Shown here piece after piece: positions 4,019 through 30,619 of a stretch of DNA of 40,000 nucleotides (position 1 is the first letter of the stretch; each line of letters opens with the position of its first letter). Below the pieces are notes generated by a model that made no database searches, was not told the DNA's origin, and saw only the letters and a program-made list of their open reading frames with translations. Origin of the DNA: Mesorhizobium sp. (GTDB taxonomy: Bacteria > Pseudomonadota > Alphaproteobacteria > Rhizobiales > Rhizobiaceae); assembly GCA_004020645.1 (NCBI GenBank), contig SAQL01000025.1, forward strand, positions 45,274 through 85,273, written 5' to 3'. The position numbers and the translations under genes were made by a program.

Positions 4019-4310
4019 ACCCGTGAAGGTCCACTATGGAGCCGATTCGGCGAGGTAATTGTGAAATCGTCTCAGGAAGCAGAAATATGGATATCTTCAA
4101 ATTTCGCGGCGGACTCCGCAGGGCACTGCTGGAGCAGGTCGACGAAATCCAGAATGCCAACGGCTGGTACAGATGGGATACGACTAGGCGCGGCAGATTC
4201 TATTGCCTATCGCTGCTGTTGTAGTTGCTTTTTCAAATAATCGTCGCGAGACTGTCGGCTTTTCAGGGCGAGGGGTCCCGCTCTTGGGGGGTGGTAATCT
4301 GTTCAGAGGG

Positions 4311-10820: not shown

Positions 10821-10825
10821 GCACG

Positions 10826-13849: not shown

Positions 13850-14552
13850 GCGTGCGGGCGCGTTGTCCTCCAAGATTGGCAGCTACAATAAGCTCAAGAA
13901 CACGGCTGACGAAGCCGAGCAGTTCCTGACGCGCGCCACCCAGTTTACGACACTTTCGGAGAAAGTGGCCCGTGCTCGCGCGAACCTGGCGAAGCTCGCG
14001 GCGGCGGGCGTCGAAACCGGTTTCGCGGCGAACGACGGTTCGGGTTATGCGGCTAAGGCTCGCACCCTACGCGAAGCCGTGCATGCCAACCCAGCCGCGA
14101 TAAACGACCCACCATTCGACTTGAAGCACGAATTTGCAGACCGAGTGTCAGCTATTGCAGTCGCAGCCGAGAAGGCGTCGCTTGTAGCGTGGCAAACCTA
14201 TGTCGCAAAGCGCGCCGCTTTCGGTGCCGATGATGTGCTGAACGCACTCGGTAAGATCCCACAGTTCCGATTAAGTATAAGTCGCATCAGCCAAATACGA
14301 ACTAATGTCGCCGGGTTCGGTGCGATGCTGCCTGACGATCCCAAGGGAGCTATCTCCAGATTGGACGCGCTGATCGACGAACACGAGGCGGCATGGAAAG
14401 CGCTCGCTGCCGACGATATCCCTTCCAGCGTGGTCGCGTTCATCCGCGCGGCGGCAAGTTCGGAGGCGCTTTTGAGCGCTTTTACGCAAGATGTGCGCAC
14501 ATGGCTCGAGAGTCGCAATCTCCTCGACGCCTTCCGTATCAAATTGCGGTAG
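13833..14552 (+). CDS. dpdI: Hypothetical helical protein in the DpdI position
   Basis: 239 aa, Ala/Lys-rich and helical. It overlaps the dpdH end by 17 nt. The name is by synteny only. Confidence 0.5.
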   Translation: MPMLLERAGALSSKIGSYNKLKNTADEAEQFLTRATQFTTLSEKVARARANLAKLAAAGVETGFAANDGSGYAAKARTLREAVHANPAAINDPPFDLKHEFADRVSAIAVAAEKASLVAWQTYVAKRAAFGADDVLNALGKIPQFRLSISRISQIRTNVAGFGAMLPDDPKGAISRLDALIDEHEAAWKALAADDIPSSVVAFIRAAASSEALLSAFTQDVRTWLESRNLLDAFRIKLR

Positions 14553-14560
14553 CCTCAGCG

Positions 14561-17500
14561 ATGCCCTTATCAGTTCAAGCTCTAGCGGTTCTCGACCGCA
14601 TCGAAGCGATCGAAATGCGTTCTTTGGAATGGGGGTTCACCGACGGCTCCCTCAGTGAGGACGAGGCCTATGCTCTTGGAGACACCGTTGTCGTCGGTGC
14701 GCCTGCGGGCGGGGCCGACGGTCAAGACCTTGTCGAAGAGCTGATCGAAGCAAGGCTGATCTTCGAGATGCCGGACATGGGTGGCGATGTCCGCATCCGC
14801 TCGCGGTTCGCGGAAATGATGCGACTGCTCGCCGCTAACCGGCAGTTGTTTCCCAATCGCCCATGGCAGGGCGCGCCATCGCTGGTCGCAGACTTTCGTG
14901 TCGATCGCCGGCCGCGCCGCTTTCCCCGCCGCGACCGCGCGCCAAATGTCATTCTCCAAGACAATCCAAATATTATCGGCACATCGCCGCTGCGCCGGGA
15001 CCTCTGGCAGTCTCTCACCGCCCGTTCCAGTCTACGCTTCTCCGCGTTTCAGGAGCGCGCCGCTGTGCGTCTTTCGTCCGCGACAGACGACGGCGGCACG
15101 ATCGTCACGGCGGGAACGGGTAGCGGCAAGACGATCGCCTTCTACCTGCCGGGCATGATCCGTATCGGCGAGGCGATCGATGCCAATTACTGGGTGAAGG
15201 CGATCGCGATCTATCCCCGGATCGAACTTCTCAAGGACCAATTCGCGGAAGCCTTCCGGATGGCCCGCGAGATCGACGCTCCGTTGAGAGCGCATGGTCG
15301 TCGCGCTCTCATGATCGGCGCCCTGTTCGGCGCGACGCCGCGCCGCGCCAGTCGGCAGGAACTGAGCGACCGCAACTGGCAACGGCGCGGACAGGATTTT
15401 GTGTGCCCCTGGATGCGCTGCCCGTCCTGTGACGCCGAGCTTTTTTGGCGCGGTAGCGATATCGACTCCGGGACCGAACAGCTCGTTTGTGCCGAGCCGG
15501 GATGCCAGGGCCATGTTAGCGAAGACCAGATCGTCCTGACCCGCGGGCGGCTTCAGCGCCATCCCCCAGACATTCTGTTCACGACGACCGAAATTCTCAA
15601 CCAGCGCCTATCGGACCAATGGATGCGCGGCCTGTTCGGCGTGGGGTTGCCAGCGGGTCGGAAGCCAATGCTCGCGCTGCTCGACGAGGTTCACACCTAT
15701 GCGGGCGCGACCGGGGCGCAGGCCGCACTCACGCTGCGACGCTGGCGTCATTTGCTCGGTGCGCCGATCGGTTGGGTCGGATTGTCGGCCACGCTTGGAG
15801 ATGCTGCCCGTTTCTTTGCGGATTTGACGGGCGCCCATCCCGACCGGGTCGTCGAGATCACGCCGACGGTCGAGGAGTATGCCGAGGAAGGCGCTGAGTA
15901 TCAGATCCTGCTACGCGGTGACCCAGGCTCACGGACCTCGCTCCTTTCGACAACGATCCAGACGGCGATGCTGCTACCTCGCCTACTTGACCCTCCCGGC
16001 GCGACCGACACGTCAGGATCGTTTGGACGGCGTGCCTTTCTGTTCACCGATGATCTCGACGTCACCAACCGGCTCTATGACGATCTACGCGATGCGGAAG
16101 CCTACACTATCTTCGGCAGGCCTGACGCCCAGCGGCTGCCGCTCGCCAATATTCGTCGCGCCGGTCCTGATGCGGCAGTACGTGACGTCGAGGGTCAGCG
16201 CTGGCGGATCTGTGAAGATATCGGTCATCCCCTCGACCGCCGGCTGATCGTCGGGCGGACAACATCGCAGGACGCCGGGGTCAATCAGGCGGCCAATATC
16301 GTCGTTGCGACCGCGGCGCTCGAGGTAGGGTTTAACGACCCCCTCGTGGGCGCGGTCATTCAGCACAAGGCGCCGCGCGGGATGGCGTCCTTTCTGCAGC
16401 GTAAAGGGCGCGCCGGCCGCGGTCGGGCGATGCGACCGATTACGTTGACGGTCCTGTCGGATTATGGCCGGGATCGCGCCTTCTATCAGGCATTCGAGCA
16501 TTTGTTCGACCCGACGCTCGAGCCACAACATCTGCCGATCCGCAATCCCTATGTGCTGAAAATTCAGGCAGTCTTCGCCCTGTTTGATTGGCTCGCCGCT
16601 AACACGGGCGGGTATGAAAAGGCGTGGCAATGGGACATTCTCAGTCGGCCTCATCCTCAGCCATCGTCCGCCGTGCGCGCCGTCATCGATCTCACTCGAA
16701 CCAAGCTCACCCAGTTGGTGCAGGGCGATCCAGCGACAATCGAGAGCCTCCGAATTTATCTCGCTAGCGCCCTGGGTGTGAGCCGCGATGTTGTGGATAC
16801 GCTATTGTGGGAGGCGCCGCGCTCGCTTCTACTCGAAGCGGTCCCAACGCTAGTGAGGCGGCTCTTTCGGAATTGGGAGTTGGCCTTCCCAACGGCGGTC
16901 GGGTCACTCGACCTTCAGGATAATTTCCACCCTCTGCCCGACTTCGTGCCTCGCAGCCTGTTTAGCGATCTCAGCCTGCCCGAGGTTCGGGTAATCATCC
17001 CGCCTGCGAGCGTCAATCATGAGGAGCGGATCGAGGCAATGCCGATCCTACAGGCGCTAAACCAGTTCGTGCCCGGTCGCGTTACTCGACGCTTCGCGCA
17101 CGAGCGGGGCGCACTGTCGCACTGGATACCCGTGGATCCCGCCTTTCCCGAACAGCAACGACGGATCGGCGACTATGCCGAAAGCCATGAATATGTCGGC
17201 ACCTTCAGCGGGAGCCTGAATGATCACACAGGCGGACCACCACTTTTGGTCTTCAGGCCCTGGGCGGTTCGGCTCGAGCGGGCGGCGAGAAGCGATGCGT
17301 TGCCGAGCAGCAATGCTCGTCTCGTGTGGCACTCCGACATCATGGCGAACGGCGATCCGCTCACGATACCTGTTCCGCTCCGCTCAGAATGGCGCCGATA
17401 TGTGCGGACCATCGATTTTCACCTGCACCGTTTCCGCTCAAGCGTCAGCGTGCGGCGGTTCGCGCCCATGGCCCACGCCAATGTCCGCACATTGCAGGAT

Positions 17501-19141
17501 GATTTCCCGATCACGCTGCACTTCACCAGTGATGACGATCGAGCTGCGGCGATCGGATTTGCACTCGAGGTCGACGGCTTCCGACTGGATCTGGCATTAC
17601 CCGAACCACATGCCCTTGCAGCCAGTATCCTACCCCCCAATCTCATTGCCACCAGCACGCTCGCCTACCTACGCGATACATTCCTGTCCGACTCAGAGCT
17701 TCCTAACGACCTGAACTCGTTCCAGCGCGAATGGCTTTTTCAGTTTCTCGTCTCAGTGGTGATGGCGGATGCGGCTGTAAACGATCGTGCGATTGCGGCG
17801 TCTATCGCAGACCTGCTCGACGACGATCGCATCACGGGTGTTTTCCGGGGCGTAATGGAAGAAACATTTGGCGCGATCCCGCCGATCACACCAGACGATG
17901 ATGACGCCGATGACGCTGATGCGGAGGACGAGGACGACGCGACGGCAATAGATATTAGTGCAGGCCCAGCCCGGGCAGCACGCGGTCCCGGCCGCTTACA
18001 GCAAGGCCTGTTGCTTCAACTGGGTCGCCCCATCGTTCGCGAGCGGCTTCGTGCCATTGCCGCTCAACTTCAGTCGGTCAATGCCGAGGCTTTCAACGTT
18101 TGGTTACGCCGTCTGGTGCTGGAGACGCTTGGCGAAGCAATGCTGCAGGCGTGCATCGCCGCTGCGCCGCGGCAGGCGACGGTCGATACGCTCCTGGTCG
18201 ATGTTCGTGACGATGTACAAGGCGGCATCGCGAGCGTCTGGATTACTGAGTCGACGCTTGGTGGAGCAGGTGTACTCGAAGCCTTTGCCGAACGCTTTGC
18301 GGCCGAACCGCGCCTTTTCTTCACCGCCCTCGAGGCGGCCCTTGCGCCGACAGACCTGGAACTTGTCGATGACGGGTTGCGCGAGATCGTGGCTTTAGGC
18401 CTCGCAAATCAAGATGTTGGCGATCAGATTGCGCGATTGCGATCGACCAATTCCCACGGCGAACGCGAAGCTCTGTGGCAATCGCTTTCGCACCGCCTGG
18501 CTCAGAGAGGAGGGATCGACCTCAGCCACGCTTTGTCGGTCTCGCTCAACAACCGCTTGCTGCGCACAGGATCGGGCCCACAACTCGACCGGCTGTTGCT
18601 CGACCTCCAGGCCCATTGGGATGCTCTCGAAAGCCGGTTCGGCCTAGCCATCGAATTGCGCGAACTTGCTTATATCTGCAGCAAGGACGTAACCCTTTCC
18701 GCCGCGATCCGAGCCTACCTCTCAGCGACCCTACCGCCGGGTGCAATTGGGCATGTCACCGTCCTTGCGGCTATCACGAGCCTGTTATGGCCGCGCGCCA
18801 ATGAAGTGCGCAAGCGCGTACTCCAATCTCACAATCCCTTCCGCCGGACTCGGAGCACCGATCCGGCCATCGTCCGCCACCTGATGCTTAGCCGGTCGAT
18901 CGCGACGATCGAACTCTCAGACCCAGACTGGCAGGCAGCGCTAAACGCGGCGTTCGACGCGCAGGGCTCGGTGCGGCTGGCCGCGGATGCCAGTGACGCG
19001 CCCGCGTTGCGTCGCGCACTTGTCAGGTTGGTCGTAACGCCGGTCAGCATTGGTGTGCTTCAGTTCTTCCCCACCGTTGAACGCGTCGAACGCTCTCATA
19101 GCCGGATCTTCGTGAGCCTTACGCTGCGGGAGCAAGTCTGA
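14561..19141 (+). CDS. dpdJ: Large DEAD/DEAH-box (DEVH) helicase, DpdJ-like
   Basis: ATG 14561 lies 8 nt after the dpdI stop. The ORF track's 14393 start lies inside dpdI in another frame. Motifs: TAGTGSGKTIAFYLPG (I), LLDEVHTY (II), LSATLG (III), QRKGRAGRG (VI). A Zn-ribbon-like insert is CPWMRCPSCD...CAEPGCQGH. An acidic linker is PDDDDADDADAEDEDD. Confidence 0.8.
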   Translation: MPLSVQALAVLDRIEAIEMRSLEWGFTDGSLSEDEAYALGDTVVVGAPAGGADGQDLVEELIEARLIFEMPDMGGDVRIRSRFAEMMRLLAANRQLFPNRPWQGAPSLVADFRVDRRPRRFPRRDRAPNVILQDNPNIIGTSPLRRDLWQSLTARSSLRFSAFQERAAVRLSSATDDGGTIVTAGTGSGKTIAFYLPGMIRIGEAIDANYWVKAIAIYPRIELLKDQFAEAFRMAREIDAPLRAHGRRALMIGALFGATPRRASRQELSDRNWQRRGQDFVCPWMRCPSCDAELFWRGSDIDSGTEQLVCAEPGCQGHVSEDQIVLTRGRLQRHPPDILFTTTEILNQRLSDQWMRGLFGVGLPAGRKPMLALLDEVHTYAGATGAQAALTLRRWRHLLGAPIGWVGLSATLGDAARFFADLTGAHPDRVVEITPTVEEYAEEGAEYQILLRGDPGSRTSLLSTTIQTAMLLPRLLDPPGATDTSGSFGRRAFLFTDDLDVTNRLYDDLRDAEAYTIFGRPDAQRLPLANIRRAGPDAAVRDVEGQRWRICEDIGHPLDRRLIVGRTTSQDAGVNQAANIVVATAALEVGFNDPLVGAVIQHKAPRGMASFLQRKGRAGRGRAMRPITLTVLSDYGRDRAFYQAFEHLFDPTLEPQHLPIRNPYVLKIQAVFALFDWLAANTGGYEKAWQWDILSRPHPQPSSAVRAVIDLTRTKLTQLVQGDPATIESLRIYLASALGVSRDVVDTLLWEAPRSLLLEAVPTLVRRLFRNWELAFPTAVGSLDLQDNFHPLPDFVPRSLFSDLSLPEVRVIIPPASVNHEERIEAMPILQALNQFVPGRVTRRFAHERGALSHWIPVDPAFPEQQRRIGDYAESHEYVGTFSGSLNDHTGGPPLLVFRPWAVRLERAARSDALPSSNARLVWHSDIMANGDPLTIPVPLRSEWRRYVRTIDFHLHRFRSSVSVRRFAPMAHANVRTLQDDFPITLHFTSDDDRAAAIGFALEVDGFRLDLALPEPHALAASILPPNLIATSTLAYLRDTFLSDSELPNDLNSFQREWLFQFLVSVVMADAAVNDRAIAASIADLLDDDRITGVFRGVMEETFGAIPPITPDDDDADDADAEDEDDATAIDISAGPARAARGPGRLQQGLLLQLGRPIVRERLRAIAAQLQSVNAEAFNVWLRRLVLETLGEAMLQACIAAAPRQATVDTLLVDVRDDVQGGIASVWITESTLGGAGVLEAFAERFAAEPRLFFTALEAALAPTDLELVDDGLREIVALGLANQDVGDQIARLRSTNSHGEREALWQSLSHRLAQRGGIDLSHALSVSLNNRLLRTGSGPQLDRLLLDLQAHWDALESRFGLAIELRELAYICSKDVTLSAAIRAYLSATLPPGAIGHVTVLAAITSLLWPRANEVRKRVLQSHNPFRRTRSTDPAIVRHLMLSRSIATIELSDPDWQAALNAAFDAQGSVRLAADASDAPALRRALVRLVVTPVSIGVLQFFPTVERVERSHSRIFVSLTLREQV

Positions 19142-19668
19142 TGGCCGCTGATTCCCGAGATTTGCACGGCCCAGCCCAGTCGCGGGCCGTGCGCGACCTG
19201 TTCCAGGGGCTTTTCATCGCCGAATTGATTAATCCGAGCCCCAAACTTTGGCTGTTCTTCGCGTGGATTTCGGATGTCGAGATCATCGACAATTCGGCAC
19301 GCCAGTTCGCAGCACTCGAACCCGATTGGCCTGCGACGCCCATCCAGCTGTCACAGGTGTTGCGCGCATTGTTGTCGCGCGGAGTCCATATCCGGCTGAT
19401 CATTCGTGAAGACGGCCACAACGACTATTTCATTGCCCGACTTCGGACGCTGAAGGCCCGATATGGCGACTTGTTGAAATGGACGATCGAGAAGAGCTTT
19501 CACGCCAAGGGACTGCTCGGCGCCGACTATTTCCTCGCCGGATCTATGAACCTGACCTTGAGCGGGATTTCAGTCAACGACGAACATCTCGTCCTGCGGA
19601 CCGATCCGGCAGTGGTCGCCGAGCAATCGATCGAACTTGAGGAAAAATGGGAGGGCCGCGTCGTATGA
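19141..19668 (+). CDS. dpdK: Phospholipase D-family (HKD) nuclease-like protein, DpdK-like
   Basis: Single HKD motif HAKGLLGADYFLAGSMNLT (HxK-x4-D-x6-GSxN). The ATG shares one base with the dpdJ TGA (TGATG at 19139-19143). Confidence 0.8.
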   Translation: MAADSRDLHGPAQSRAVRDLFQGLFIAELINPSPKLWLFFAWISDVEIIDNSARQFAALEPDWPATPIQLSQVLRALLSRGVHIRLIIREDGHNDYFIARLRTLKARYGDLLKWTIEKSFHAKGLLGADYFLAGSMNLTLSGISVNDEHLVLRTDPAVVAEQSIELEEKWEGRVV

Positions 19669-21806
19669 TCGGCACCGATGGCGACGCGTCCCGACAAGCG
19701 CTTGCCGATATCCTGGCGATCAATGCCTTTGGTGCCCTGGATGCCGAGTTGGCCGCGCTGTGCTCTGCAGTTTCCGACAGCATTGCCGATCCCAATTTTC
19801 CGGGTGCGCTAATCCCCACGCTCGATGCAACTGGCGACATTCAGGTGATGATAGTCGCACCGACGGTGGCTTCCTGGCGGCGCCTGAAGCCCGTCTTGGT
19901 TGCTTTTGCCGGACCGACTTTGACCTCGTTCGACGGCATTCCGGAAGCGCTTATTTCCGGTCAAGCCCTGTCCGACAGAGTGGCGCAGACCCAGCCGGCC
20001 GTCACAGGCATTATGCGGCTCCCCGCAGATCGGCGCGCGCGCATGACGGCGCTGCGCGCATTGATCCGAGCGCGCGATACATTGGCACGGGCTCCCGAAT
20101 TGCAGCGTACTGCGCCGGTCCCGACAAGCTGGTTGCTCGCGCGCTACCAGGATTATCTGAATGTCGGCCGGCGCGCCGCGGCGGCAGAAATTCTCGGGCG
20201 TTTGCGGTCCGAACTGCGGCTCGACTCTCTGAATATCAAATTCCTTGAAGTCCAATTGCACGCGACTTTTGCCGAATGGCAGGCGATCGTTGAACTCGGT
20301 GGTTTCTCCAGCCTGTGCGTCGCGCGGCGTACACCCGCGATCACCGGCCTTCTCCTTGAGGCGCTCTACCACACCCATCTCGCCCAGCCATTCGATGCGC
20401 AGGATGTAGCCGAAACCCGCCGACGATATGAAAATCTGGTGCGGCCTCTCGCGCAGCCAATGTTGACGGCGCCGGCGCCTGCCGCGCTCACCGCCCATGG
20501 ATGGCGGATCTACGGCCTTGAAGCCTTGCAGGCCCCGGATCGAACCGACATTGCCGATCTGCTGGTGCAAAGGTCCGACGACCTTGGATGGATTGGCGGC
20601 TTGCTGCCGGTCTCGTCTGCCCATCTGGAAAGCGCGATCGCCGCCGAAGCACCGCTCGACATAGCGCGCGAAGCGCTTATGCGCGTCGATGCCGTCGACA
20701 GCAACGACCTGCTTGCGGATGCCCGCGCCGCGCTTGCCCGTCTTGCGCCTGAGGAACGCGCGCTTTTGAGAGAGGCCGACCCCTTCCGGCCCCCCATGCA
20801 GATTGCCGAGCTTTTAGAGGCGACTGTGCCGCCCACTTCCTGGGTTGATTGGCTCGACCGTGCAGCTGACGTGAGTTTCGTTAGCGCGCTTGATGTGGCC
20901 AGGCAAGCAAACAATGAATGGCCGATCAACGCGACTGCGGGCGATCCGGTCGCGGTCCAAGCGCTCGCTGCCGCGCTCGATAGGGCGCAGGTGAGCGATG
21001 TCGCAGCCGAGCGAACCGCCCAGGCTTTGCCATACCTCGTGGCGTGGCTGCAGCGGGTTCCGGATTTCCCCCGCGCAGCAATGACACCAATCTACGCGAG
21101 CCTCTTGACCCTGTTCGCGCTTAGCAGGGCGCGCGGCGCGACGACCTATGATTCAAGCCAGGTTCTGATTGGTGCTCTGCTGACCAGCGGCCTTGATAGC
21201 AAAGCCTATAAAGCTCTGATCGCCGACATTAACGAGATCGCAGGCGACGGCTTCGGGATCGACATGATCTATTGGATCCTGGAAATAGTGGAAGACTTCA
21301 TGAAAGCGAGTGCGCCTGATGCCAGCGCTCGCGAAGATTTCTTCCACGGCGTATTGGCGCGTGTCGCGCCTATTTATGCACGCCTCTCCAGCCTACAGCG
21401 GTCTGCGATCGGACAATTGGCAGCCGAACTGGGGTGGAAGCTGCAAACGTTCGGCGTCAGCCCAGGTCGCGATACCCCTGACAGCTTCTCCGCTCGTATC
21501 CAGGGTATGCGCATCGCAATATACTCACTGACTGAATCCTCGAGCCGGCAGGCTAAGGCCGCCTTGGAACAAGTTGCTTCGACCATTATCGTCGATACCA
21601 ATGCCGATTATGGTGGAACTGCGCGGTTGCGTGCACTGGCCGAAAATGCCGATCTGTTTGTAATGACTTGGTTGTCGGCAAAGCACGCTGCGACCGACTT
21701 CATACGAGAACACCGGGGCAGCCGGCCACTGATTTACGCCCAAGGTAAAGGCTTCTCGAGCATATTGCGCGCAATTGAAGACCACATCCGAAGCCTTTCG
21801 ATGTAG
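19665..21806 (+). CDS. Hypothetical 713-aa protein coupled to dpdK; C-terminal DUF2325-like Rossmann-type tail (possible DpdD equivalent, unverified)
   Basis: ATGA overlap with the dpdK stop (19665-19668). The body is Ala/Leu-rich and helical. The C-terminus, IAIYSL...NADLFVMTWLSAKHAATDFIREHRGSRPLIYAQGKGFSSILRAIE, resembles the DUF2325 pattern as I recall it (D.vv..t..vsH.....k......p.........s). Confidence 0.55.
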   Translation: MIGTDGDASRQALADILAINAFGALDAELAALCSAVSDSIADPNFPGALIPTLDATGDIQVMIVAPTVASWRRLKPVLVAFAGPTLTSFDGIPEALISGQALSDRVAQTQPAVTGIMRLPADRRARMTALRALIRARDTLARAPELQRTAPVPTSWLLARYQDYLNVGRRAAAAEILGRLRSELRLDSLNIKFLEVQLHATFAEWQAIVELGGFSSLCVARRTPAITGLLLEALYHTHLAQPFDAQDVAETRRRYENLVRPLAQPMLTAPAPAALTAHGWRIYGLEALQAPDRTDIADLLVQRSDDLGWIGGLLPVSSAHLESAIAAEAPLDIAREALMRVDAVDSNDLLADARAALARLAPEERALLREADPFRPPMQIAELLEATVPPTSWVDWLDRAADVSFVSALDVARQANNEWPINATAGDPVAVQALAAALDRAQVSDVAAERTAQALPYLVAWLQRVPDFPRAAMTPIYASLLTLFALSRARGATTYDSSQVLIGALLTSGLDSKAYKALIADINEIAGDGFGIDMIYWILEIVEDFMKASAPDASAREDFFHGVLARVAPIYARLSSLQRSAIGQLAAELGWKLQTFGVSPGRDTPDSFSARIQGMRIAIYSLTESSSRQAKAALEQVASTIIVDTNADYGGTARLRALAENADLFVMTWLSAKHAATDFIREHRGSRPLIYAQGKGFSSILRAIEDHIRSLSM

Positions 21807-21974: not shown

Positions 21975-22781
21975 TCATTGGGGTTGGCTGTGGAATTTGT
22001 TGGATTTCTGCGGAGGGTGACTTGCCTTCAGCACGATCGCCGGCACTTCGGCAAAGGACGAAACTGTGAAGTCCGGTTGAACCAGCTGGGGATCCGCCTC
22101 CCATCGCGGCTTGAAACCACCAGGATAGTAGATCGTTATCAACCCAGCCTCCTTAGCCGGACGGATATCCCGCTCGAGTTGGTCGCCGATCATATATCCG
22201 GGGGATGAAACACCCGGCAGCAATTGGACGCGCTTGTAGAGGCCCAAATGCTTGGGCGCCTCGATAATCCGATCGATATAATGGCCGATCCCCTGCGAGC
22301 GTGCTGTCCGCGCTGCCTTTTCCCGGGATCCCTCGGTGACAACAGTAATCAGACAACCAGCCGTATGCAGGGCATGAATACCTTCAGCCACTCCGTCACG
22401 GAGATCAGGCAAACGTTGAACGGCAGCGAGGAACGTTCTTTCGGCGGTTTCTGCTTCCAGGTCCCCAATCACTTGCCGCTCGGTCGCGCTCGTCCACGCC
22501 AATCTGGCCGCCTCCTGAGCGCGGACTCCAGTGAGCGCTAGTGCAATTGCCTTAGCCAAGTGGCGTGGTGGATAACGAAGGCCGGCGTGATGTCGCTCTG
22601 CGAGCATCTGATCCAGAGACCGAACGTACGCAAGCCTATCCTCGGGGATCGCTTCCCTCTTTAGAGCCCTTTCTACCAACCCTAGCAGTTCGAGTTGGGC
22701 AGACGCAAAGACGCGATCTGTATCCCACAATGTGTTGTCGGCATCGGTGAGTACGTTCGTTTTGACAACTGCTCCCCTCAC
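21975..22781 (-). CDS. HAD-superfamily hydrolase/phosphatase
   Basis: Motif I LTDADNTLWDT (DxDxT), motif II ITVVTEGS, motif IV GDQLERDI. The GTG start overlaps the stop of the upstream membrane-protein gene (GTGA at 22778-22781). Confidence 0.75.
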   Translation of the reverse strand: MRGAVVKTNVLTDADNTLWDTDRVFASAQLELLGLVERALKREAIPEDRLAYVRSLDQMLAERHHAGLRYPPRHLAKAIALALTGVRAQEAARLAWTSATERQVIGDLEAETAERTFLAAVQRLPDLRDGVAEGIHALHTAGCLITVVTEGSREKAARTARSQGIGHYIDRIIEAPKHLGLYKRVQLLPGVSSPGYMIGDQLERDIRPAKEAGLITIYYPGGFKPRWEADPQLVQPDFTVSSFAEVPAIVLKASHPPQKSNKFHSQPQ

Positions 22782-23800
22782 TGCGGAGCTACCTTGTCGT
22801 TTTGAATCGGCTTAGTCGCTGAAGGATCCTCGTTCGATCGATTGGTAGAATCCGGCTTTGGCTCGACCGCTTCTGCGCCGGTTCCAGTTGGGTGCACGTT
22901 CTCGACGACCTGGGCACTTTTCTCCATTGGCGTTGGCCCAACAAGGATGTTTACAAGTCCAAGAAGCGCCAACCAGACAAGGAGGCACCGAAGTCCGAAC
23001 GCAAGTGTGTTCTGCGCCGGTTCGAGATATCGTACCTTGTCTGCGACTTTTGCCGCTACCAGATAGCTCTCGCCAAGGTAGTTGCGCAGGTATCGAATAG
23101 AAAGATCTGGACGTAGGTGAACGGAATCTGACGTGGGCGCCGCTGTAACAAACGACGCAGCCCAAGCTGATGGGCGCACAGCAATAATTGCCGGGAAGAA
23201 AAGATGCGACTTTGGCTCGGCCAGTTCGCGTTGGAGATTATTGGGATCGGTTGTCGGAAATTTGAACCGCGTACGTGTGGCATGAAAAATGACCAATGCC
23301 CCACTAACTGCGCTCACCAGGAATATGGCGAAAACGAGATAAGTCAGCCCGATAAGAAATCCCTTGTATGACAAAAGCATGTTCATTGAGGGAAGTGGAT
23401 ATGCTTCATTGAAGCGCGCGAACAATACACCGGAGAGTGCGCTTAAGAACGTGGCGATTGTCAGGAGACGGAACGCTTTTTGATCTTGATATTCGGTAAG
23501 GTCCTTGACCTCGTCGAGTGACTCCCTGCCTCGCTGCAGAGCAGCCTTGAGGATCTCGCTTGGCGGTTGAATTCCCGAGCTACTTTTGTCAATTTCGCTG
23601 CCAGATGTGGTGTCAATGAGTTTTTCCGTTTCAGCTGCTATTTCCATTAGTATCTGCTCACTGGTGAGCGATACAGTACTTCGCGACTCGGTTAAGCGAG
23701 GAAAATGCTCGATGTCTGTCGACCAAAAGGCATTCCAAACGGCTCTCCAAGATGAAAGACTTTCCCCATTCTTGGCCATCTTGATTTGCATCCTCTTCAC
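22778..23800 (-). CDS. Multi-pass membrane protein, Pycsar-effector-like (PycTM/DUF5706-like) candidate
   Basis: At least three hydrophobic helices: FRLLTIATFLSALSGVLFARF, FLIGLTYLVFAIFLVSAVSGALVIF and LAFGLRCLLVWLALLGLVNILVG. YQDQKAFRLL before TM1 and SHLFFPAIIAV after TM2 resemble the DUF5706 pattern as I recall it (faDtKA...; s.iFF..ia). The gene is visibly AT-richer than its neighbours. Confidence 0.45.
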   Translation of the reverse strand: MKRMQIKMAKNGESLSSWRAVWNAFWSTDIEHFPRLTESRSTVSLTSEQILMEIAAETEKLIDTTSGSEIDKSSSGIQPPSEILKAALQRGRESLDEVKDLTEYQDQKAFRLLTIATFLSALSGVLFARFNEAYPLPSMNMLLSYKGFLIGLTYLVFAIFLVSAVSGALVIFHATRTRFKFPTTDPNNLQRELAEPKSHLFFPAIIAVRPSAWAASFVTAAPTSDSVHLRPDLSIRYLRNYLGESYLVAAKVADKVRYLEPAQNTLAFGLRCLLVWLALLGLVNILVGPTPMEKSAQVVENVHPTGTGAEAVEPKPDSTNRSNEDPSATKPIQNDKVAPQ

Positions 23801-23841
23801 GCAGCGGCTTTATGCGGGTACCGATCGCAGGTTTCCAGATT

Positions 23842-24408
23842 TCAAGCCGGCATAAGGCCCAGTCGACGATCTCGCGCGCGCAGCAATGCCAGGAATGGAA
23901 GGGCGGCCAACACCATCCAGGTCTTACCCACGACTTGTCCTGCCAAAAATTCAACGGAACCGAAAGCAAGGCCGAGAAACACGATGCTGTCGATAACAAG
24001 CCCCACCATACTGCTTGCGACGGCGGCACGGATGAATCCGCGACGCTGCAGCGGAGTGTAAACCGCTAAGTCTGCGATTTCCGACAACAGAAAAGCGACA
24101 GTGGAGGCGACGACCAGCGCTGGCGGCGCAAAACTCGCCGACAACAAGGCGCCGATCGCAATTGCGGCAGCCGTCCAACTTAAGCCAAGTCGCCGCTGCA
24201 CAAGGTCGCGCAGCACCAAGGCGAGACCTACCGCCAACACCCCGCTGGGAGCGTCAATTCCGGGCGCCACGGGGATCAGGCATGGACCATTTGGTACACA
24301 GGTTGTCCCAACATTCCCGATGAGCCAGTTCGCAAGCGGGATGCATCCAGCAAAGCACAAAGCGAACACGATTCCTTCCGTCCTACGGAGGCGATCGATC
24401 TCAGCCAT
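23842..24408 (-). CDS. VUT-family / YhhQ-like queuosine-precursor transporter candidate
   Basis: 188-aa polytopic membrane protein. It overlaps the queC stop by 8 nt. Composition and size fit the short COG1738/DUF165 proteins found in que clusters. Confidence 0.55.
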
Positions 24409-25162
24409 TGGACAACTCCTGCGTCAGCGGTAGCGTTGCAGTTCGCTTGGCGAACTGTCGATATCCCTTCGCGCGCAACTCGCATGCCGGGCACACGCCG
24501 CAGCCTCGTCCCCACTCATGGATGTTCCCGACTTCCCCATGGTAGCATGTCAAAGTGCTAGTGCGGATCAAGTTCACCAGGGCCGTCCCACCTAGTTCTT
24601 CGGCAAGGGTCCACGTCTGTGCCTTGTCTATCCACATAAGCGGAGTCTCGAGAACGAAACGACTCTCCATACCTAGGTTGAGGGCGACTTGAAGCGCTTT
24701 CACCGTATCGTCACGGCAGTCCGGATATCCGGAAAAATCGGTTTCGCAAACGCCAGTCACTATGTGCTTGAGACCTCGACGGTAGGCGACAGCAGCAGCA
24801 AATGTGAGGAAGATAATATTCCGCCCTGGCACGAAAGTGTTCGGCAAACCGGATTCTGTAGTCGCGATCTCAACGTCGCGCGTCAATGCCGTCTCGCTGA
24901 TTTCGCCGAGCACAGACAGATCGAGGACGCGGTCCTCGCCGAGTTTGGCGGCCCATTTGGGAAAATTGTGCTCCAAGCCAGCTCGGAATTCGCCCCTCGC
25001 GTCTAGCTCGGCGCGATGCCGCTGCCGATAATCGAATCCGATAGTCTCCACGCGCTCGAATCGATCGAGGGCCCAGGCAAGGCACGTCGCAGAGTCTTGG
25101 CCGCCGGAAAAAAGAACGAGCGCACTATCGGTTGCCTGTACTAGGTGTTGCGGGTCAGCCAT
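24401..25162 (-). CDS. queC: 7-cyano-7-deazaguanine (preQ0) synthase QueC
   Basis: PP-loop [17 protein letters not shown]-terminal Zn Cys cluster CYHGE...[10 protein letters not shown]. Start ATG 25162 overlaps the queD stop (ATGGCTGA). The ORF is also open from ATG 25198. Confidence 0.9.
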
Positions 25163-25505
25163 TGTACTCGGCCCAGCAGTTCGGGGTTTCGTAGACAACT
25201 ACCGCGGTCAGTGGCAAAAGCGGCCTAACCCGGTTCCAGATCCAAACCGCAATGTTCTCGGCCGTCGGATTGTTCAACCCCTCGACTTCGTTAAGGCAAT
25301 GATGGTCGAGTTGGGCGAGCAATGGATTAAACGCCGCCTCCACGTCGAAGAAGTCGACGACGAAGCCGGTATGAGAGTCGACAGGCCCCTCGAGGCGGAG
25401 TTCGATTCGATAGGAATGACCGTGCATACGGTGACAGCGGTGCGTCAACGGAACATGGGGCAACCTGTGCGCGGCCTCGAAGGTGAACGCCTGAGTTATT
25501 TTCAT
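25155..25505 (-). CDS. queD: 6-carboxy-5,6,7,8-tetrahydropterin synthase QueD
   Basis: [40 protein letters not shown] is the typical QueD/PTPS-like His/Cys motif set. ATG 25505 overlaps the queE stop (ATGA). The product is 116 aa. Confidence 0.9.
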
Positions 25506-26137
25506 CTGATTCCAAGTTGCTTGTGGGTTTGAAGGCTGAGTTGCCAACGAGGGTTCGCCAGGCAATAGGCGACTGCGTCCTGCGTATTAGATGCGCGATC
25601 AGGCCCATCCATTGGCTGGAGCAGGAAATGATCGAAGGCCAGCGCTTCAAAGCGCCGCGGTTCTGCGCCCACCTGCGGAAATACCAACTTGAGTTCGTTT
25701 CCGGTTTTAATCGCGATTTCAGTACCTGACTTTGGACTGACGCAAACCCAGTCGATCCCTGGAGGTGGCGTGAGCGTACCATTGGTTTCGACGGCGACCT
25801 CGAACCCTTTGGCATGCAAGGCGTCGATGAGAGGCGGGTCGATTTGGAGCAGCGGTTCGCCGCCTGTTAATACCACGAACCTGCGCTCAGAGAGTGACGG
25901 TGACCATTTCGCCTCAATGGCACTCGCCAGGTCATCGCATGTTGCAAAGCGACCACCGCCGTCGCCATCCGTGCCTACAAAATCCGTGTCGCAGAACTGG
26001 CACACGGCCTTCAGGCGATCGGCTTCCCTGCCGGACCAAAGATTGCACCCGGTGAACCGGCAAAAAACGGCCGCGCGTCCGGCCTGGCGGCCCTCACCTT
26101 GGAGAGTGTAAAACATTTCCTTAACTGCGTAACTCAT
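25502..26137 (-). CDS. queE: 7-carboxy-7-deazaguanine synthase QueE (radical SAM)
   Basis: The N-terminus is MFYTLQGEGRQAGRAAVFCRFTGCNLW. The cluster motif C-x14-C-x2-C (CNLWSGREADRLKAVCQFC) is of the Burkholderia-type QueE kind. Confidence 0.9.
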   Translation of the reverse strand: MSYAVKEMFYTLQGEGRQAGRAAVFCRFTGCNLWSGREADRLKAVCQFCDTDFVGTDGDGGGRFATCDDLASAIEAKWSPSLSERRFVVLTGGEPLLQIDPPLIDALHAKGFEVAVETNGTLTPPPGIDWVCVSPKSGTEIAIKTGNELKLVFPQVGAEPRRFEALAFDHFLLQPMDGPDRASNTQDAVAYCLANPRWQLSLQTHKQLGIR

Positions 26138-26143
26138 AGCTTT

Positions 26144-27232
26144 TCACGCTGCCCGTGCGGATTCGGCGAGGCGCCGCTTGAGGACCTGGACTAGGTGAAG
26201 TGATAGTTGGCGGACATCGGACGGAACGTTCTGGAGCCCATTCCAACGTCGGCGCTCAGCGCCGAACTCCCACTCGCCCTCGCTCCAAGCGGTCTTTCCC
26301 TGCAGTAGTCGCAAGCCACTCGCGAATTCGTCGCGTGTAGAAGCGCCTGTAACGCTGTTGAGAAAATCCATGACATAACCGAGGGCGATGATGCCCGTGC
26401 CATGGATCAACCGAGACGTTTTGGGCGTCTTACCGGACCAATCGTCTGCAAAGACGTGTTGGACTGCATGGTAGAACTCGCTCATCATTGTGACGCCCTG
26501 ATCAAGCAAAAGCTTGTCTTCGCCGGCGTAAAGGCGCAGAGCCCCGTCACTCAGCGAGTTCATGATAACCCGCTGCAGCACAGTGTCCCGGATGACCCCC
26601 TTTGGGTTGGTTTGCTGCTTGATCAAACCCCTTAGGGACGATCCCTTGCGATAGTTGAGCGCCTCTGTAGCCAGTGCCGCTTGTGATCGGCTTGACATGC
26701 GGTGCGGCAGATCTCCCACCTTTGGGAGCAGTTCGTACACTAGGGCCTTTGGCAACGGGCGCGTGTTATTCACAAGGATGAACTGTTTTTGCAATTCCTC
26801 CTCTGTCTCACAGAGGAAACCCGACACGAGCACTTCGAAGTCGCGGCCTCGCAGTTCCGAAAGCGCCGTAAAACGCTGTTGTCCATCAACGATCCAACCG
26901 GGCGGGCCCTTGGACGTATCTATGACCAGTTGGCAGAGGCGACTTTCCGGATTCGTCACTGGCTCTAACCAAGCTTGCCCCATGAAGGCGACCACGATGG
27001 CATTGGGCAAGATTGAGTTCGGCTTTTCGAGATAATCACGGATTTCGCGAATGTGGCCCGCGATCTGCGGCCGCTGGAAGCCCTGGAGCGCCCCCGCGTC
27101 ATCGCGACCCGCCCGTTCGATACGAGCAATGCGTGCGACTTCTGCAGCATTTGCAATGAAGGTGAAAACCGTCAGTTTCTCGCTTTGAACCGGTGCCAGC
27201 GCATCAAACCGAAGAAAATGTTGATTGTTCAT
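26144..27232 (-). CDS. DGQHR-domain (DndB/ParB-like) protein, DpdB/DpdC-type paralog 1
   Basis: Motifs GFQRPQIAGHIREIRDYL, ILPNAIVVAF, WIVDGQQRFTAL and QFILVNNTRPLP. ATGA overlap with the dpdA stop. Colinear with the 379-aa paralog. Confidence 0.75.
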   Translation of the reverse strand: MNNQHFLRFDALAPVQSEKLTVFTFIANAAEVARIARIERAGRDDAGALQGFQRPQIAGHIREIRDYLEKPNSILPNAIVVAFMGQAWLEPVTNPESRLCQLVIDTSKGPPGWIVDGQQRFTALSELRGRDFEVLVSGFLCETEEELQKQFILVNNTRPLPKALVYELLPKVGDLPHRMSSRSQAALATEALNYRKGSSLRGLIKQQTNPKGVIRDTVLQRVIMNSLSDGALRLYAGEDKLLLDQGVTMMSEFYHAVQHVFADDWSGKTPKTSRLIHGTGIIALGYVMDFLNSVTGASTRDEFASGLRLLQGKTAWSEGEWEFGAERRRWNGLQNVPSDVRQLSLHLVQVLKRRLAESARAA

Positions 27233-28518
27233 ATGCTCTCCTGCCGGAATTCGCTCAAGTGGGTGTGAAAGACGTGTAGGTTGTGGATTCCGCGTCGCTT
27301 GTTACGATTTGAGGTGCGGAAGATCACGGCCTCCACACCGCTCTCCCGACAAACTCGGCAGCTGCACCGCTCCCAGGGCCGATCGCCAAGGGTGTGGGCA
27401 TAGACCTTGCGCTGTCGGGTTGCGGCGTCCGCACGACGGCTCGGTGATGCCTCGTCGTGCCAGTTCAGGGCGGCCCAATAGTCCATCACGGCATCAAGGC
27501 TTTGGTCCAGGGTCGCGCCGCCGTCGGCATAAGCACGCACGCCGCGAAGCGCGGCATCTTCAAGACGCCTCGCGTCCTCCTGGTTGAGGCTGCCTTCCAG
27601 CGCCTTATGCTTGAGCTTGTTGTTCTGGGTAGCCTGCGGAATACGAATTGCGGTGTAGTATGAGAGATCGCCGTCGGCCGTCCGCACCCAGTAATTCTTC
27701 CGGGCGTCCTTGAAGGCACGCAAAAGCGGAGACGTCGTGTCGAAACTGGTGACGCCGTACTGTTCCAGCGCGGCCAGTTCCTCGATTTTGCCAAAGCCCA
27801 GGAGATGAAGTCGGATCCTGTCGGGGAGAGTCTCACGCAACGCTTGTAAGACACGGCGAATCTGATCGATCCTCAACGGCACAGTGCCGCCGATGGCTAA
27901 ATAGTCATATCCCATACTGGCCAGGTTGCGGGCAGCCTGCGCCATACTCTCAGCCGACCATCCCTGTATTACGCCCATTGGCGTGAAGCCTGGGCCTACG
28001 CCTGCGGCGGATTTGTAGAACTCGGTCGCATTCTGAAGAGTGATTTCGTAGCGACGACGCACATCCTCTGGCACGTCATCCATGGTCCGCGTCAAACCAA
28101 TGTCGTCAAAGTCAAAGATAAGGTGATCGGGCGAACAGCCGTGCGTGAAGCCGCCGTCAGCATAGAATTCCGCTGTGTCGTCGGCGCTATACGGCGGCTC
28201 CGGTAGATTCCGATAGGTGAAGGCGCCGCAGTCGCCCATCATCAGGCTTCCCGGAAATCGATCGAGCGGATAGCGCAGAAAGCGTCGGGCGCCCTCGCGA
28301 CGAAAGCGCATCGACTGTGCTTCCGAATATTTTCCTGGCTGCCGCGCATCGCCCACGATGGTGCGGGAAACCAAGATTCCGTCATACGGCGCCTGCTCTA
28401 GGAACTCGTGAGGGTACTGATCATCGCGGTGAACTGATCGGCCGGCGCCGTTGCGATCCGCGACGAAGTCATACTCAGGGTCGATCGTATCGACGCTGTC
28501 TGCGAACACGAACCGCAT
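27229..28518 (-). CDS. dpdA: DNA-guanine transglycosylase DpdA (TGT-like, tgtA5 family)
   Basis: 429 aa. The core is TGT TIM-barrel-like (MMGDCGAF, YLAIGGTVPL, LHLLGFG). The C-terminal signature is CSCRVC...IFRTSNRNKRRGIHNLHVF. It is embedded between DGQQR proteins and queCDE. Confidence 0.85.
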   Translation of the reverse strand: MRFVFADSVDTIDPEYDFVADRNGAGRSVHRDDQYPHEFLEQAPYDGILVSRTIVGDARQPGKYSEAQSMRFRREGARRFLRYPLDRFPGSLMMGDCGAFTYRNLPEPPYSADDTAEFYADGGFTHGCSPDHLIFDFDDIGLTRTMDDVPEDVRRRYEITLQNATEFYKSAAGVGPGFTPMGVIQGWSAESMAQAARNLASMGYDYLAIGGTVPLRIDQIRRVLQALRETLPDRIRLHLLGFGKIEELAALEQYGVTSFDTTSPLLRAFKDARKNYWVRTADGDLSYYTAIRIPQATQNNKLKHKALEGSLNQEDARRLEDAALRGVRAYADGGATLDQSLDAVMDYWAALNWHDEASPSRRADAATRQRKVYAHTLGDRPWERCSCRVCRESGVEAVIFRTSNRNKRRGIHNLHVFHTHLSEFRQESI

Positions 28519-29657
28519 CAGGCGACCTTTGCGAATGCGTGCATGTGATCGAGGCGCGCTAGGTGGCCAGACAACAGTTTGATGTCGCGTCCAACGTTCT
28601 GAATCTCATTCCAATCGCGCTGCAACTCCGCCCATCTGCCGTTGGTCCAGCGACAATATGGAGCGATCCGCGTCAGGGACTCCGTCGCGTGGAGTAGCAG
28701 GTCCGTCCCAGGCGCCGCTCGCGACATGATACGGTCCATCAAGAGGCTCATCGCCTCGACGCCCGCTGAGTGCATAAGCCGACTTTCGGTAGGTGGGCGA
28801 CCCCATGCCTCAGGAAAGACGCGACGGACAGCGGTCCAGTAAGCGACAAGTGCACGGTACATCGCATCCACGTCCGCGGGACACTCTGCTGTCGCCTTAT
28901 ACGGGGCGAGTGAGCCAAGGGCGCTATTGATGCTGTTGCGGATCGCCTTGATCAATGCCGAGTCAGTGACAACGGCGGTCGTGGAATCTTCAGAAAGCCG
29001 TTTGATAAGGCCTTGGAACGGAGAATCAGAAGAGGTTTGGAGCAGATTGACGAGTTCGCTTGGGATTTTCCGAGACGACAAGTCACGCGGAAAGGCTGTG
29101 TCTACTTCTGGAAGTAGTTCGTTGATCAGCCGAGGGTCGAGCGGTTTCGCCTTGTTGACCAAGATGAACTGTTCGCGATGGACGGACAATTCCTCTGACA
29201 CAAAGGCGACGACGGGAACGGGAAAGCTCTTGTTCTGAGCTTGAGACAGGGCAATCGAACGCTGTTGGCCATCGACAATCCAAGCCGCCTTTGGGCCGTC
29301 GTTTGGAAGTGGGATCCGCAATGTTCCCGCCTCACACGACCTTACGTCGCCGCCAGGCTTTTCGCCCCTTGTCTGGGTGAAACGTGCGCGCGGCGAGAGC
29401 GCGAGAATGATGGCGTTCGGGAAGAGCACGGGCCCCTGATCAAGGAACTCCGTGATCGCTTGGACGTGGCTCTTAATGCCCTTGCGCTGAAATCCGTGCA
29501 GAGACCCTTCGCCGTCCCGGTGAACGCGGCTGATCTCGGCAAACTTGAGAAGGTCGGCACCAGCGACAAAGAATGCATAGACAGCTTTATCAGCCTGTTC
29601 GGTGCGGACCGCGCGAACAGCGAGCGTTGCCTCCTTGGCCTTTCGCGGACGCGTCAT
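28518..29657 (-). CDS. DGQHR-domain (DndB/ParB-like) protein, DpdB/DpdC-type paralog 2
   Basis: Motifs GFQRKGIKSHVQAITEFL, LFPNAIILAL, WIVDGQQRSIAL and QFILVNKAKPL. Its stop shares one base with the dpdA ATG (TGATG). Its ATG overlaps the upstream stop (ATGA at 29654-29657). Confidence 0.75.
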   Translation of the reverse strand: MTRPRKAKEATLAVRAVRTEQADKAVYAFFVAGADLLKFAEISRVHRDGEGSLHGFQRKGIKSHVQAITEFLDQGPVLFPNAIILALSPRARFTQTRGEKPGGDVRSCEAGTLRIPLPNDGPKAAWIVDGQQRSIALSQAQNKSFPVPVVAFVSEELSVHREQFILVNKAKPLDPRLINELLPEVDTAFPRDLSSRKIPSELVNLLQTSSDSPFQGLIKRLSEDSTTAVVTDSALIKAIRNSINSALGSLAPYKATAECPADVDAMYRALVAYWTAVRRVFPEAWGRPPTESRLMHSAGVEAMSLLMDRIMSRAAPGTDLLLHATESLTRIAPYCRWTNGRWAELQRDWNEIQNVGRDIKLLSGHLARLDHMHAFAKVA

Positions 29658-30619
29658 GCGGCTCCCCTTTGCTCGATAGCGGCTCGGTAGAGACGACTAA
29701 ACCGCGATTGCTCGCATGCAACACCCTCTTCATCTCGAAGCGCACGGAGGATTCGTGCAATGCCTGATTGCGACCGAAGGCGCGCCAAAATTAGCTGAAC
29801 GATCTCCGCATCGTTGCGGCGTAGGCGGCGAGGGCGGTCAGGGGCCGCCACTCCTCCAATGGCAGCCTCTACGGCTGCATAATCGGCGTCTCGGTCATAA
29901 GCGTCGCGTTTGGTCGCCACCAACCGAACAAAGTGGAGCATGGCCCGCTGAGAAAAGTCGGCCCGGGTACCTGGAAGGATCGCATCCAACCGATCGTCGT
30001 AGGGCAGGACCGATGGCGCGAGTGTAACTGGTAAGGCCGATGCAAGAGATGCGCCGAAGATTCGCAGCCGCGCCAAGGCTTGAGGTCCCAGTTCACTCAA
30101 GCTCTTACCTACCATCTCGGCATATGGACGGGTAAGCGCGATGAGCACTCGCCCAGAACCTTGGCCGAATGCGTCGCCCCATTGATCCGAATACGCACCT
30201 GACATAAGGCTGGCAAACCAGGCGCCGGGATCGAACTCATCCGTTACCCGTGCCGCGACGGACTCAGCGTGCCCCCCGGACACAGTGAGCCCATAGAGTG
30301 GGACTTGCCGGTTTATATCCACCAGGCCCAACCCGGCAGAAAGGACGTAAAGCTTGGCCTCGGCGATATTTGCGGCCTGGGTCGCGAGTCCAAACCCTCG
30401 ACCAGCGTAGAGTGCGCCGGCGGAGGCCGCGAGCGGTAGCGCCCGCATCTTCGTGTTCCAAGCAGTCTGAATCACCTCCTGTGGACCCAGGCGCAAAGAA
30501 ACTGCTGTTGCCGCGAACGGCGCTCGCGCCATTTTTCGATGGGTGCAGATAGTAATCAGAGCTGCAATCGGCTTCGGGGTTGAGTGTTCGAGGGTTCGCG
30601 CAACTGCTGCCGGAGTCAT
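29654..30619 (-). CDS. Hypothetical protein, first gene of the dpdA/que operon; DUF6884/YaaA-like N-terminal pattern plus C-terminal HTH-like tail
   Basis: ALITICTHRK...ALYAGRGF...LYVLSAGLGLV...VPLYGLT resembles the DUF6884 pattern as I recall it (C..K...Y.G..F...ILSA..G...P.Y..T). The C-terminus, EIVQLILARLRSQSGIARILRALRDEEGVACEQSRFSRLY, looks like a resolvase-type HTH. Confidence 0.5.
   Translation of the reverse strand: MTPAAVARTLEHSTPKPIAALITICTHRKMARAPFAATAVSLRLGPQEVIQTAWNTKMRALPLAASAGALYAGRGFGLATQAANIAEAKLYVLSAGLGLVDINRQVPLYGLTVSGGHAESVAARVTDEFDPGAWFASLMSGAYSDQWGDAFGQGSGRVLIALTRPYAEMVGKSLSELGPQALARLRIFGASLASALPVTLAPSVLPYDDRLDAILPGTRADFSQRAMLHFVRLVATKRDAYDRDADYAAVEAAIGGVAAPDRPRRLRRNDAEIVQLILARLRSQSGIARILRALRDEEGVACEQSRFSRLYRAAIEQRGAA

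Follow-up and report, generated by a model that had tools for sequence, protein, structure and literature searches.

What might two genes at the very end of a DNA-modification operon be doing there, and do they belong to the system they follow? Dpd, which inserts 7-deazaguanine into DNA, is among the largest and least understood of the modification-restriction systems, and the question is raised by a Dpd island in a stretch of 40,000 nucleotides from Mesorhizobium sp. (GenBank assembly GCA_004020645.1, contig SAQL01000025.1), which we refer to as the window. Its modification operon ends in a gene for a three-pass membrane protein (3TM) followed by a gene for a HAD phosphatase. The system's genes, dpdA-K, have been described (Thiaville 2016; Yuan 2018; Gedara 2023, PMC10164549), as have islands with embedded queCDE and yhhQ (PMC5699537). 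We found that the 3TM-HAD pair is previously undescribed, and that it is an optional accessory module which depends on Dpd, whereas Dpd does not depend on it. The published and database definitions of Dpd that we found include neither gene, and the literature searched held nothing linking Dpd to a HAD or a PycTM-like protein. A GATOR-GC survey of 2,335 dpd windows gives the common neighbor domains, and 3TM and HAD were not among them in the part of that report available to us. RefSeq labels the two products 'hypothetical protein' and 'HAD family hydrolase'.

The pair and the gene before it are arranged as follows.
23842-24408, minus strand: VUT (YhhQ-like) preQ0 transporter gene, directly upstream of 3TM (PF02592, E 3e-10)
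22778-23800 (GTG start) or 22778-23779 (ATG start), minus strand: 3TM membrane protein gene, a distant PycTM homolog
22778-22781, minus strand: GTGA start/stop overlap of 4 nucleotides, read directly from the sequence
21975-22781, minus strand: HAD phosphatase gene, 268 amino acids (PF00702, E 3e-11)

An earlier note, made from the letters alone, had described two GTGA-coupled minus-strand reading frames at the tail of a que/dpd operon, the first encoding a protein of 340 amino acids with at least three transmembrane (TM) helices and lying 41 nucleotides from the transporter gene. Both frames are present, and their overlap suggests translational coupling. The distance is correct from the GTG at 23800; from the ATG at 23779, which gives 333 amino acids, it is 62 nucleotides. 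The ATG is likely to be the true start, because the 333-residue version is identical to a database protein (P0001) and the codon is preceded, at a distance of about 11 nucleotides, by a Shine-Dalgarno-like AAGAGGA stretch. The note had also called the cassette AT-richer, which is so for the 3TM gene (G+C content 0.49-0.54, against 0.56-0.64 around it) but not for the HAD gene (0.56-0.58), which resembles the que genes. For both proteins the best database matches came from Mesorhizobium. The pair is not a product of chance open reading frames, since both families are large: 3TM had 235 homologs in a word-indexed search and 417 clusters (50% identity, E <= 1e-3) in an exhaustive one, and the HAD family is comparably large.

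Hydropathy analysis of 3TM gave exactly three hydrophobic segments, centered near residues 112, 152, and 271, and an AlphaFold2 model built from a 30-member alignment (mean predicted local distance difference test score, pLDDT, 75.9) placed long helices at residues 75-126, 138-169, and 226-279. 3TM is thus an inner-membrane protein, and the charge distribution suggests an N-in/C-out topology, by which the N-terminal part and the loop of 90 residues joining TM2 to TM3 would both be cytoplasmic. In the alignment of 30 family members (A1), roughly the first 75 residues are variable, and a near-invariant helix, SLDEVKxQTEYQDQKATRLLT, then leads into TM1. After TM2 come FHATRTRFKYP, an S-x-LF motif and a soluble insert, then ETYLVAAKxADKLRYLEPAQ leading into TM3, and a proline-rich tail closes the protein. 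The motifs singled out beforehand in the window protein, QDQKAF before TM1 and SHLFFPAII, are both there. A further family member, P0276 (509 amino acids), carries two 3TM units in tandem in one polypeptide; the second would be inverted in the membrane, because each unit has three helices.

The likeness to PycTM/DUF5706 that had been proposed for this protein was not apparent from the family model itself. The window protein did not match Pfam PF18967 (gathering threshold 27.2 bits) even at E <= 1, its relatives P0002, P0038, and P0061 did not match PF18967.5 at E <= 0.01, and many other relatives have only a weak precomputed match to PF18967.6. The PADLOC PycTM model PDLC02364 matched the window protein weakly (E 1.6e-4). 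Because Pfam was silent and this match weak, a profile-profile comparison was made between alignment A1 and an alignment (A2) of 20 proteins above the PF18967 cut-off, drawn from a 400-genome phylum sample. hhalign returned a probability of 96.2% (E 2.3e-9); the 148 aligned columns extend from the helix before TM1 as far as TM3 and pair DQKA with DQKA, LF with LFFG, and K-x-R with K-Y-R. The alignments, the AlphaFold2 model and the hydropathy profile agree on a PycTM layout of three TM helices, a DQKA helix, an LFF motif and a K-x-R before TM3. By profile comparison, 3TM belongs to the PycTM three-TM fold as a remote and enlarged branch. Scans of 3TM against Pfam, NCBIfam, and PHROGs gave nothing useful, a Foldseek search with the model returned nothing from PDB or BFVD at E <= 0.001, and a sequence-profile search of the PDB gave a single chance-level match. 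We found no phage record encoding 3TM.

The second protein was confirmed as a HAD hydrolase. It exceeds the cut-offs of PF00702, PF13242, and PF13419, has motifs I-IV, including the expected DADNT (motif I) and GDQLERD (motif IV), and has about 100 residues between motifs I and II. Against the narrower NCBIfam models (TIGR02253, YjjG, PpaX, PGP) it scores far below cut-off, and it fails the YjjG-type nucleotidase model TIGR02254, at 34.6 bits against an equivalog cut-off of 159.9 bits. HADs with small-molecule substrates typically carry a large C1 cap at this place, and judged by its sequence the protein is a cytoplasmic, C1-capped, subfamily I small-molecule phosphatase; the cap type was assigned from sequence, as a single-sequence AlphaFold2 model (pLDDT 38) was unusable. 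The catalytic residues D13, D15, T17, K177, G199, D200, and D205 are invariant in 26 homologs, as are many cap positions, including W19, D20, Q29, R54, D57, Q58, H64, H65, Y70, and P71, and because of this invariance we suggest that the enzyme acts on one specific small-molecule substrate. The nearest PDB structures are PH1655, NANP/HDHD4, and YfnB; their substrates are not transferable to it, because the similarity lies mainly in the core domain and not in the cap.

To what extent are the two genes kept together? A survey of one genome per species (GTDB) gave 31 loci with 3TM, and a metagenome survey gave 65. HAD adjoins 3TM in 30 of the 31 genome loci and in all 38 metagenome loci with enough flank, where it lies downstream on the same strand in 28, downstream and convergent in 7, and upstream in 3. 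As adjacency outlasts changes of order and orientation, 3TM and HAD most likely work together. Their junction is an exact 4-nucleotide overlap in 37 of 75 same-strand pairs and an overlap of 8-47 nucleotides in most of the others. Distance matrices of 3TM and HAD gave the highest correlation (r 0.88), followed by the pair with QueE (0.85-0.86) and with DpdA and DpdB1 (0.66-0.71), and the mean p-distance of the pair (0.51) exceeds that of the Que and DpdA proteins (0.28-0.31), so that the pair evolves faster; these figures are descriptive only, because the loci share kinship and physical linkage.

Two in-frame 3TM-HAD fusions were seen (P0366; L132:10001-11725). In both, HAD comes after TM3, on the outer side of the membrane if the N-in/C-out prediction is right, and HAD encoded on its own lacks a signal peptide. 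In L031, which is closely related to L132, a stop codon divides the two parts. A search with the fused L132 reading frame found no more fusions, so that the two may be frameshift artefacts. If genuine they would argue for physical association, and we treat them as weak evidence. The convergent arrangement is illustrated by a peat or soil metagenome lineage (L087:5393-13582) with 3TM on the plus and HAD on the minus strand, in surroundings that look like a prophage or defense island (a Sipho_Gp157-like gene, a Y-family polymerase, a RES-domain toxin and a ThiF/E2-like pair).

The pair closes an unbroken run of ten minus-strand genes (30619 to 21975), whose junctions are mostly overlapping or a few base pairs apart, in the order dpdC-dpdB-dpdA-dpdB-queE-queD-queC-VUT-3TM-HAD. 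The genes before VUT, and the convergent operon that faces the run, are as follows.
29654-30619, minus strand: dpdC (PADLOC and NCBIfam equivalog match, 2.2e-73)
28518-29657, minus strand: dpdB paralog 1 (PADLOC/NCBIfam equivalog match; DpdB E-values 2.2e-135 and 1.4e-114 for the two paralogs)
27229-28518, minus strand: dpdA (PADLOC/NCBIfam equivalog match, 2.5e-162)
26144-27232, minus strand: dpdB paralog 2 (PADLOC/NCBIfam equivalog match)
25502-26137, minus strand: queE, preQ0 synthesis (gene order kept in related loci)
25155-25565, minus strand: queD, preQ0 synthesis (gene order kept in related loci)
24401-25198, minus strand: queC, preQ0 synthesis (PF06508, E 8e-70)
4203-21806, plus strand: convergent restriction operon, dpdE-K and dpdD (PADLOC and NCBIfam)
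14393-19141, plus strand: dpdJ (PADLOC match)
19141-19668, plus strand: dpdK (PADLOC and NCBIfam match)
19647-21806, plus strand: dpdD (PADLOC 3.7e-291, NCBIfam match)

The window therefore holds a full Dpd set by PADLOC and NCBIfam equivalog matches, with DpdA, two DpdB paralogs, DpdC, DpdD-K, queCDE, and the YhhQ-like gene. The last of these matches TIGR00697 below cut-off, and roughly half of the related loci have a VUT gene at the corresponding place. The convergent operon ends 168 nucleotides from the HAD stop codon. No PADLOC or NCBIfam Dpd model matched 3TM or HAD, which places both outside the defined gene set. An Rfam scan of the window found no riboswitch or other RNA, and promoter and terminator scans gave signals no higher than shuffled controls.

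Gene neighborhoods tie the pair to Dpd. The ten-gene order, with or without VUT, is kept in 25 of the 31 genome loci, and where the flank is at least 6 kb, dpd or que genes are present in 28 of 30 genome loci and 30 of 31 metagenome loci. This rejects the unrelated hitchhiker, one of the options left by the earlier note. About 95% of adequately flanked 3TM-HAD loci are Dpd islands, from Alphaproteobacteria, one Verrucomicrobiaceae metagenome-assembled genome (MAG) and many metagenomes. In three apparent exceptions DpdA lies 19-24 kb off with restriction genes between; in two of these it is on the same contig as the pair, and in the third the coordinates fit a shared contig. In a 400-genome class sample, DpdA and the 3TM family occurred in exactly the same genomes and loci.

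A few loci had no dpd genes within reach. At L002 the pair lies between transposases, and L023 and L090 likewise lack dpd genes within reach. In Bradyrhizobium cosmicum (L033; AP012279.1, 530585-551508) it sits in an integrase-bounded element with a DndB-like (DGQHR) gene on the opposite strand and prophage-like genes near, and without que or dpdA within 10 kb. On an Agrobacterium vitis plasmid (L147; CP146243.1), DGQHR-domain and HNH endonuclease genes lie between HAD and dpdD (22018-25030), split from each other by one IS5 copy and flanked by another.

Dpd islands, in turn, frequently lack the pair. Only 4 of 17 DpdA plasmids carry it and 13 do not, and the three Dpd islands from other classes in the phylum sample, which were all of its non-alphaproteobacterial islands, have the pair nowhere in their genomes and are also without que genes. 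Plasmids of Caulobacter sp. S6 (DpdA 84% identical) and Methylobacterium XJLW (67%) keep the dpdCBAB-queEDC(-VUT) operon without the pair. Because such close relatives keep the operon without it, the pair is dispensable for modification. That it strictly tracks the que genes was also ruled out, as both plasmids have queEDC and no pair. The converse arrangement, a pair in an island without nearby dpdD-K, is found on S. americanum plasmid B and in a second island of the window's own genome; plasmids and integrative elements are among the sites that bear the pair.

This second island (G000:C243, about 211,200-219,600; L064/L065) is another copy of the ten-gene module, about 50% identical, and tblastn found no dpdD-K within 12-13 kb on either side. 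Its second dpdB appears frameshifted near C243:214,976, with two high-scoring segment pairs in different frames. A further locus (L004/L076; G555:C2) has DpdA and both DpdB proteins 86-87% identical to those of the window, DpdC 66%, QueE and QueC 67%, and 3TM and HAD 43-48%; it lacks VUT and has two QueD-like genes. This mosaic implies a recombination break between dpdB and queE.

If 3TM belongs to the PycTM fold, is there a cyclase to serve it? The earlier note saw none in the window, and we found no class III cyclase (PF00211) on the whole of its contig (C146) or on C243, the two Dpd contigs of a genome that has 35 such domains elsewhere. Window genes used as probes turned up no cyclase at about 100 related loci, although no cyclase model was run on these, and none is listed among the genes of the annotated plasmid loci. 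The arrangement that marks Pycsar and Pucsar, an effector beside a class III cyclase (PycC or PucC), is absent from the island, and cyclic-nucleotide gating of the window 3TM seems unlikely. DUF5706 is also found fused to HD phosphohydrolases. According to a 2026 preprint, PucTM, a relative, forms a hexameric channel (bioRxiv 10.64898/2026.08.12.744502). In another alphaproteobacterial family, three loci (L038, L039, L043) carry PF18967 proteins well over cut-off beside MatE, aminotransferase, or adenosine deaminase genes and no cyclase, and only one examined PF18967 locus (L050) has the classic cyclase and an AGS-C partner. Many 'Pycsar effector' annotations may not be Pycsar, because PF18967 members occur without a cyclase.

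We tentatively favor the reading that the pair is a phosphatase-controlled, ligand-gated membrane effector forming a second line for Dpd, which we consider possible, at somewhat less than an even chance. The recruitment of backup effectors to BREX-type systems offers a conceptual precedent (PMC12839542). 3TM would oligomerise into a gated pore, and a Lys/Arg-rich cytoplasmic juxtamembrane site, putatively made up of the EYQDQKATRLL helix, FHATRTRFKYP after TM2, and AAKxADKLRYL before TM3, would bind a small phosphorylated ligand. Neither island has a cyclase. A HAD phosphatase cannot open a cyclic phosphodiester, so any ligand would have to be a phosphomonoester and not a cyclic nucleotide made by a cyclase; a nucleotide that arises from deazaguanine metabolism or from Dpd activity is the probable candidate. 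HAD would hydrolyze this ligand and so keep the pore closed in healthy cells; infection would raise the ligand or block HAD, the pore would open, and the cell would be stopped by a second line acting at the membrane. Such a role would be favored by the kinship of 3TM with effectors that form pores and are activated by nucleotides, by the conservation of a basic site on the cytoplasmic side, by the patchy presence and by the fast evolution; by analogy it would also be favored by the fact that the only studied relatives of 3TM are defense effectors, nucleotide-activated and oligomeric. Absence from closely related islands, the low G+C content of the 3TM gene and the plasmid and integrative-element sites likewise give the pair an accessory, conflict-like look. 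The stronger proposal, that alphaproteobacterial Dpd islands carry a second membrane arm in which a PycTM-type pore, with HAD as its off-switch, responds to a phosphomonoester nucleotide connected with Dpd restriction or with the metabolism of 7-deazaguanine DNA, and not to a cyclic nucleotide from a cyclase, we regard as unlikely.

Several observations weigh against the effector. No signal-making enzyme is present and the ligand is wholly hypothetical; the pair stands in the modification/preQ0 operon and not in the restriction operon; and it is kept in islands without nearby dpdD-K, which a metabolic role fits at least equally well. Neither gene matches a PADLOC system, the weak PycTM match aside. 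Several alphaproteobacterial PF18967 members lie in housekeeping-like contexts without a cyclase, and because such contexts exist the PycTM fold is no proof of defense. A metabolic alternative has to be taken seriously: clean-up, salvage or efflux for 7-deazaguanine metabolism, with HAD as a 5'-nucleotidase for 7-deazaguanine (deoxy)nucleotides. Its substrates would be preQ0-ribonucleotide, an adventitious product of purine phosphoribosyltransferases under overproduction of preQ0, or the monophosphates of dPreQ0/dADG set free as modified DNA turns over. Keeping modified nucleotides out of the nucleoside and deoxynucleoside triphosphate pools would restrict modification to the time after replication and deny phage DNA the self mark, while 3TM would anchor HAD to the membrane and serve the exit or recycling of the nucleoside or base, beside the YhhQ transporter. 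At most loci the pair sits directly behind queC or VUT and is translationally coupled, its distances track QueE above DpdA and DpdB1, it persists where restriction genes are not nearby, and the three pair-less islands of the phylum sample have no que genes. The invariant polar and aromatic positions of the HAD cap point to one common substrate, the weak best family matches include YjjG- and YfnB-type nucleotidases, HAD phosphatases occur in toyocamycin-type clusters, and some PF18967 proteins have no cyclase partner. Yet relatives with the full dpdCBAB-queEDC(-VUT) operon do without the pair, so it is not needed for modification; the islands encode neither a phosphoribosyltransferase nor a nucleoside hydrolase; transport is not a known activity of any PycTM-family member; several loci place the pair beside restriction genes, 19-24 kb from dpdA; and the HAD cap has no characterized relative. 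We consider this clean-up function a close rival, also at less than an even chance, and rank it slightly below the effector. These two correspond to the abortive-infection backup and the nucleotide-processing module of the earlier note, and the evidence gathered here does not separate them.

Two further explanations seem to us improbable. The pair might be an independent two-gene module, toxin-antitoxin-like or a stand-alone defense system, for which the Dpd island is only a preferred landing site. Its varying presence among close Dpd relatives, the lower G+C content of the 3TM gene, the mosaic L004 locus (DpdA/DpdB 86%, 3TM/HAD 43-48%) and the few loci without dpd within reach (L002, L023, L090, L033) could be read in this way. 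A free-living defense pair would, however, be expected across many kinds of island, and about 95% of well-flanked loci are Dpd islands of diverse taxa and gene orders; in the class sample the pair was never without DpdA, and the exceptions are short or rearranged MAG contigs. There is a similarly small chance that the pair is a structural or regulatory Dpd accessory, in which 3TM tethers Dpd proteins or DNA to the membrane, recalling plasmid-spread SpdB proteins, and HAD acts on a macromolecule, for example DNA 3'-phosphate ends from aborted base exchange, or a phosphoprotein. Strict association with Dpd would fit, the PycTM fold family is named for SpdB3 of pJV1, part of a DNA-translocation complex (PMC4447253), and the two fusions could point to a physical link between the proteins. 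Such fusions are few and possibly artefactual, though, the large C1 cap is of the kind seen in small-molecule HADs, and searches of Pfam and of structures recognized no DNA-binding or protein-interaction domain.

The published Dpd gene set ends at dpdA-K and the que genes, and the pair points to an unrecognized layer, which could be a backup killing arm or a control on modified nucleotides that denies invaders the use of the host's self mark. The use of PycTM-type three-pass proteins without a cyclase bears on their ligands and gating. If the stronger proposal of a nucleotide-gated membrane arm holds, this would be the first effector of the PycTM family to be linked with a system resembling restriction-modification and with a ligand that is not cyclic.

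Among known systems, the toyocamycin/sangivamycin-type 7-deazapurine clusters come close in gene content, as they too have a PF00702 phosphatase beside queC/D/E-type preQ0 genes, and HAD phosphatases are standard in them (bioRxiv 10.64898/2026.04.15.718813). They encode a phosphoribosyltransferase and purine-salvage-like enzymes but no DpdA, whereas the window's island has no phosphoribosyltransferase and its product goes into DNA. The window HAD shares its core fold and catalytic motifs with the YjjG/YfnB house-cleaning nucleotidases and NANP/HDHD4 (HAD subfamily IA), which are its best though weak matches; its scores lie far below the curated cut-offs and its cap is unmatched. 3TM resembles PycTM and PucTM (PF18967, formerly DUF5706; the three-TM family of pJV1 SpdB3) in its three TM helices, the cytoplasmic (A/Q)DQKA helix leading into TM1, the proline after TM2, LFF(G/Y), the soluble helical insert, the K-x-R before TM3 and the defense-island setting. 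It differs in being only about 16% identical, below the Pfam gathering score, and about twice as long, as it has some 75 additional residues in an N-terminal domain, an extended insert, and a proline-rich tail. It also lies within a DNA-modification operon, and its partner in the loci surveyed is a HAD phosphatase rather than a cyclase.

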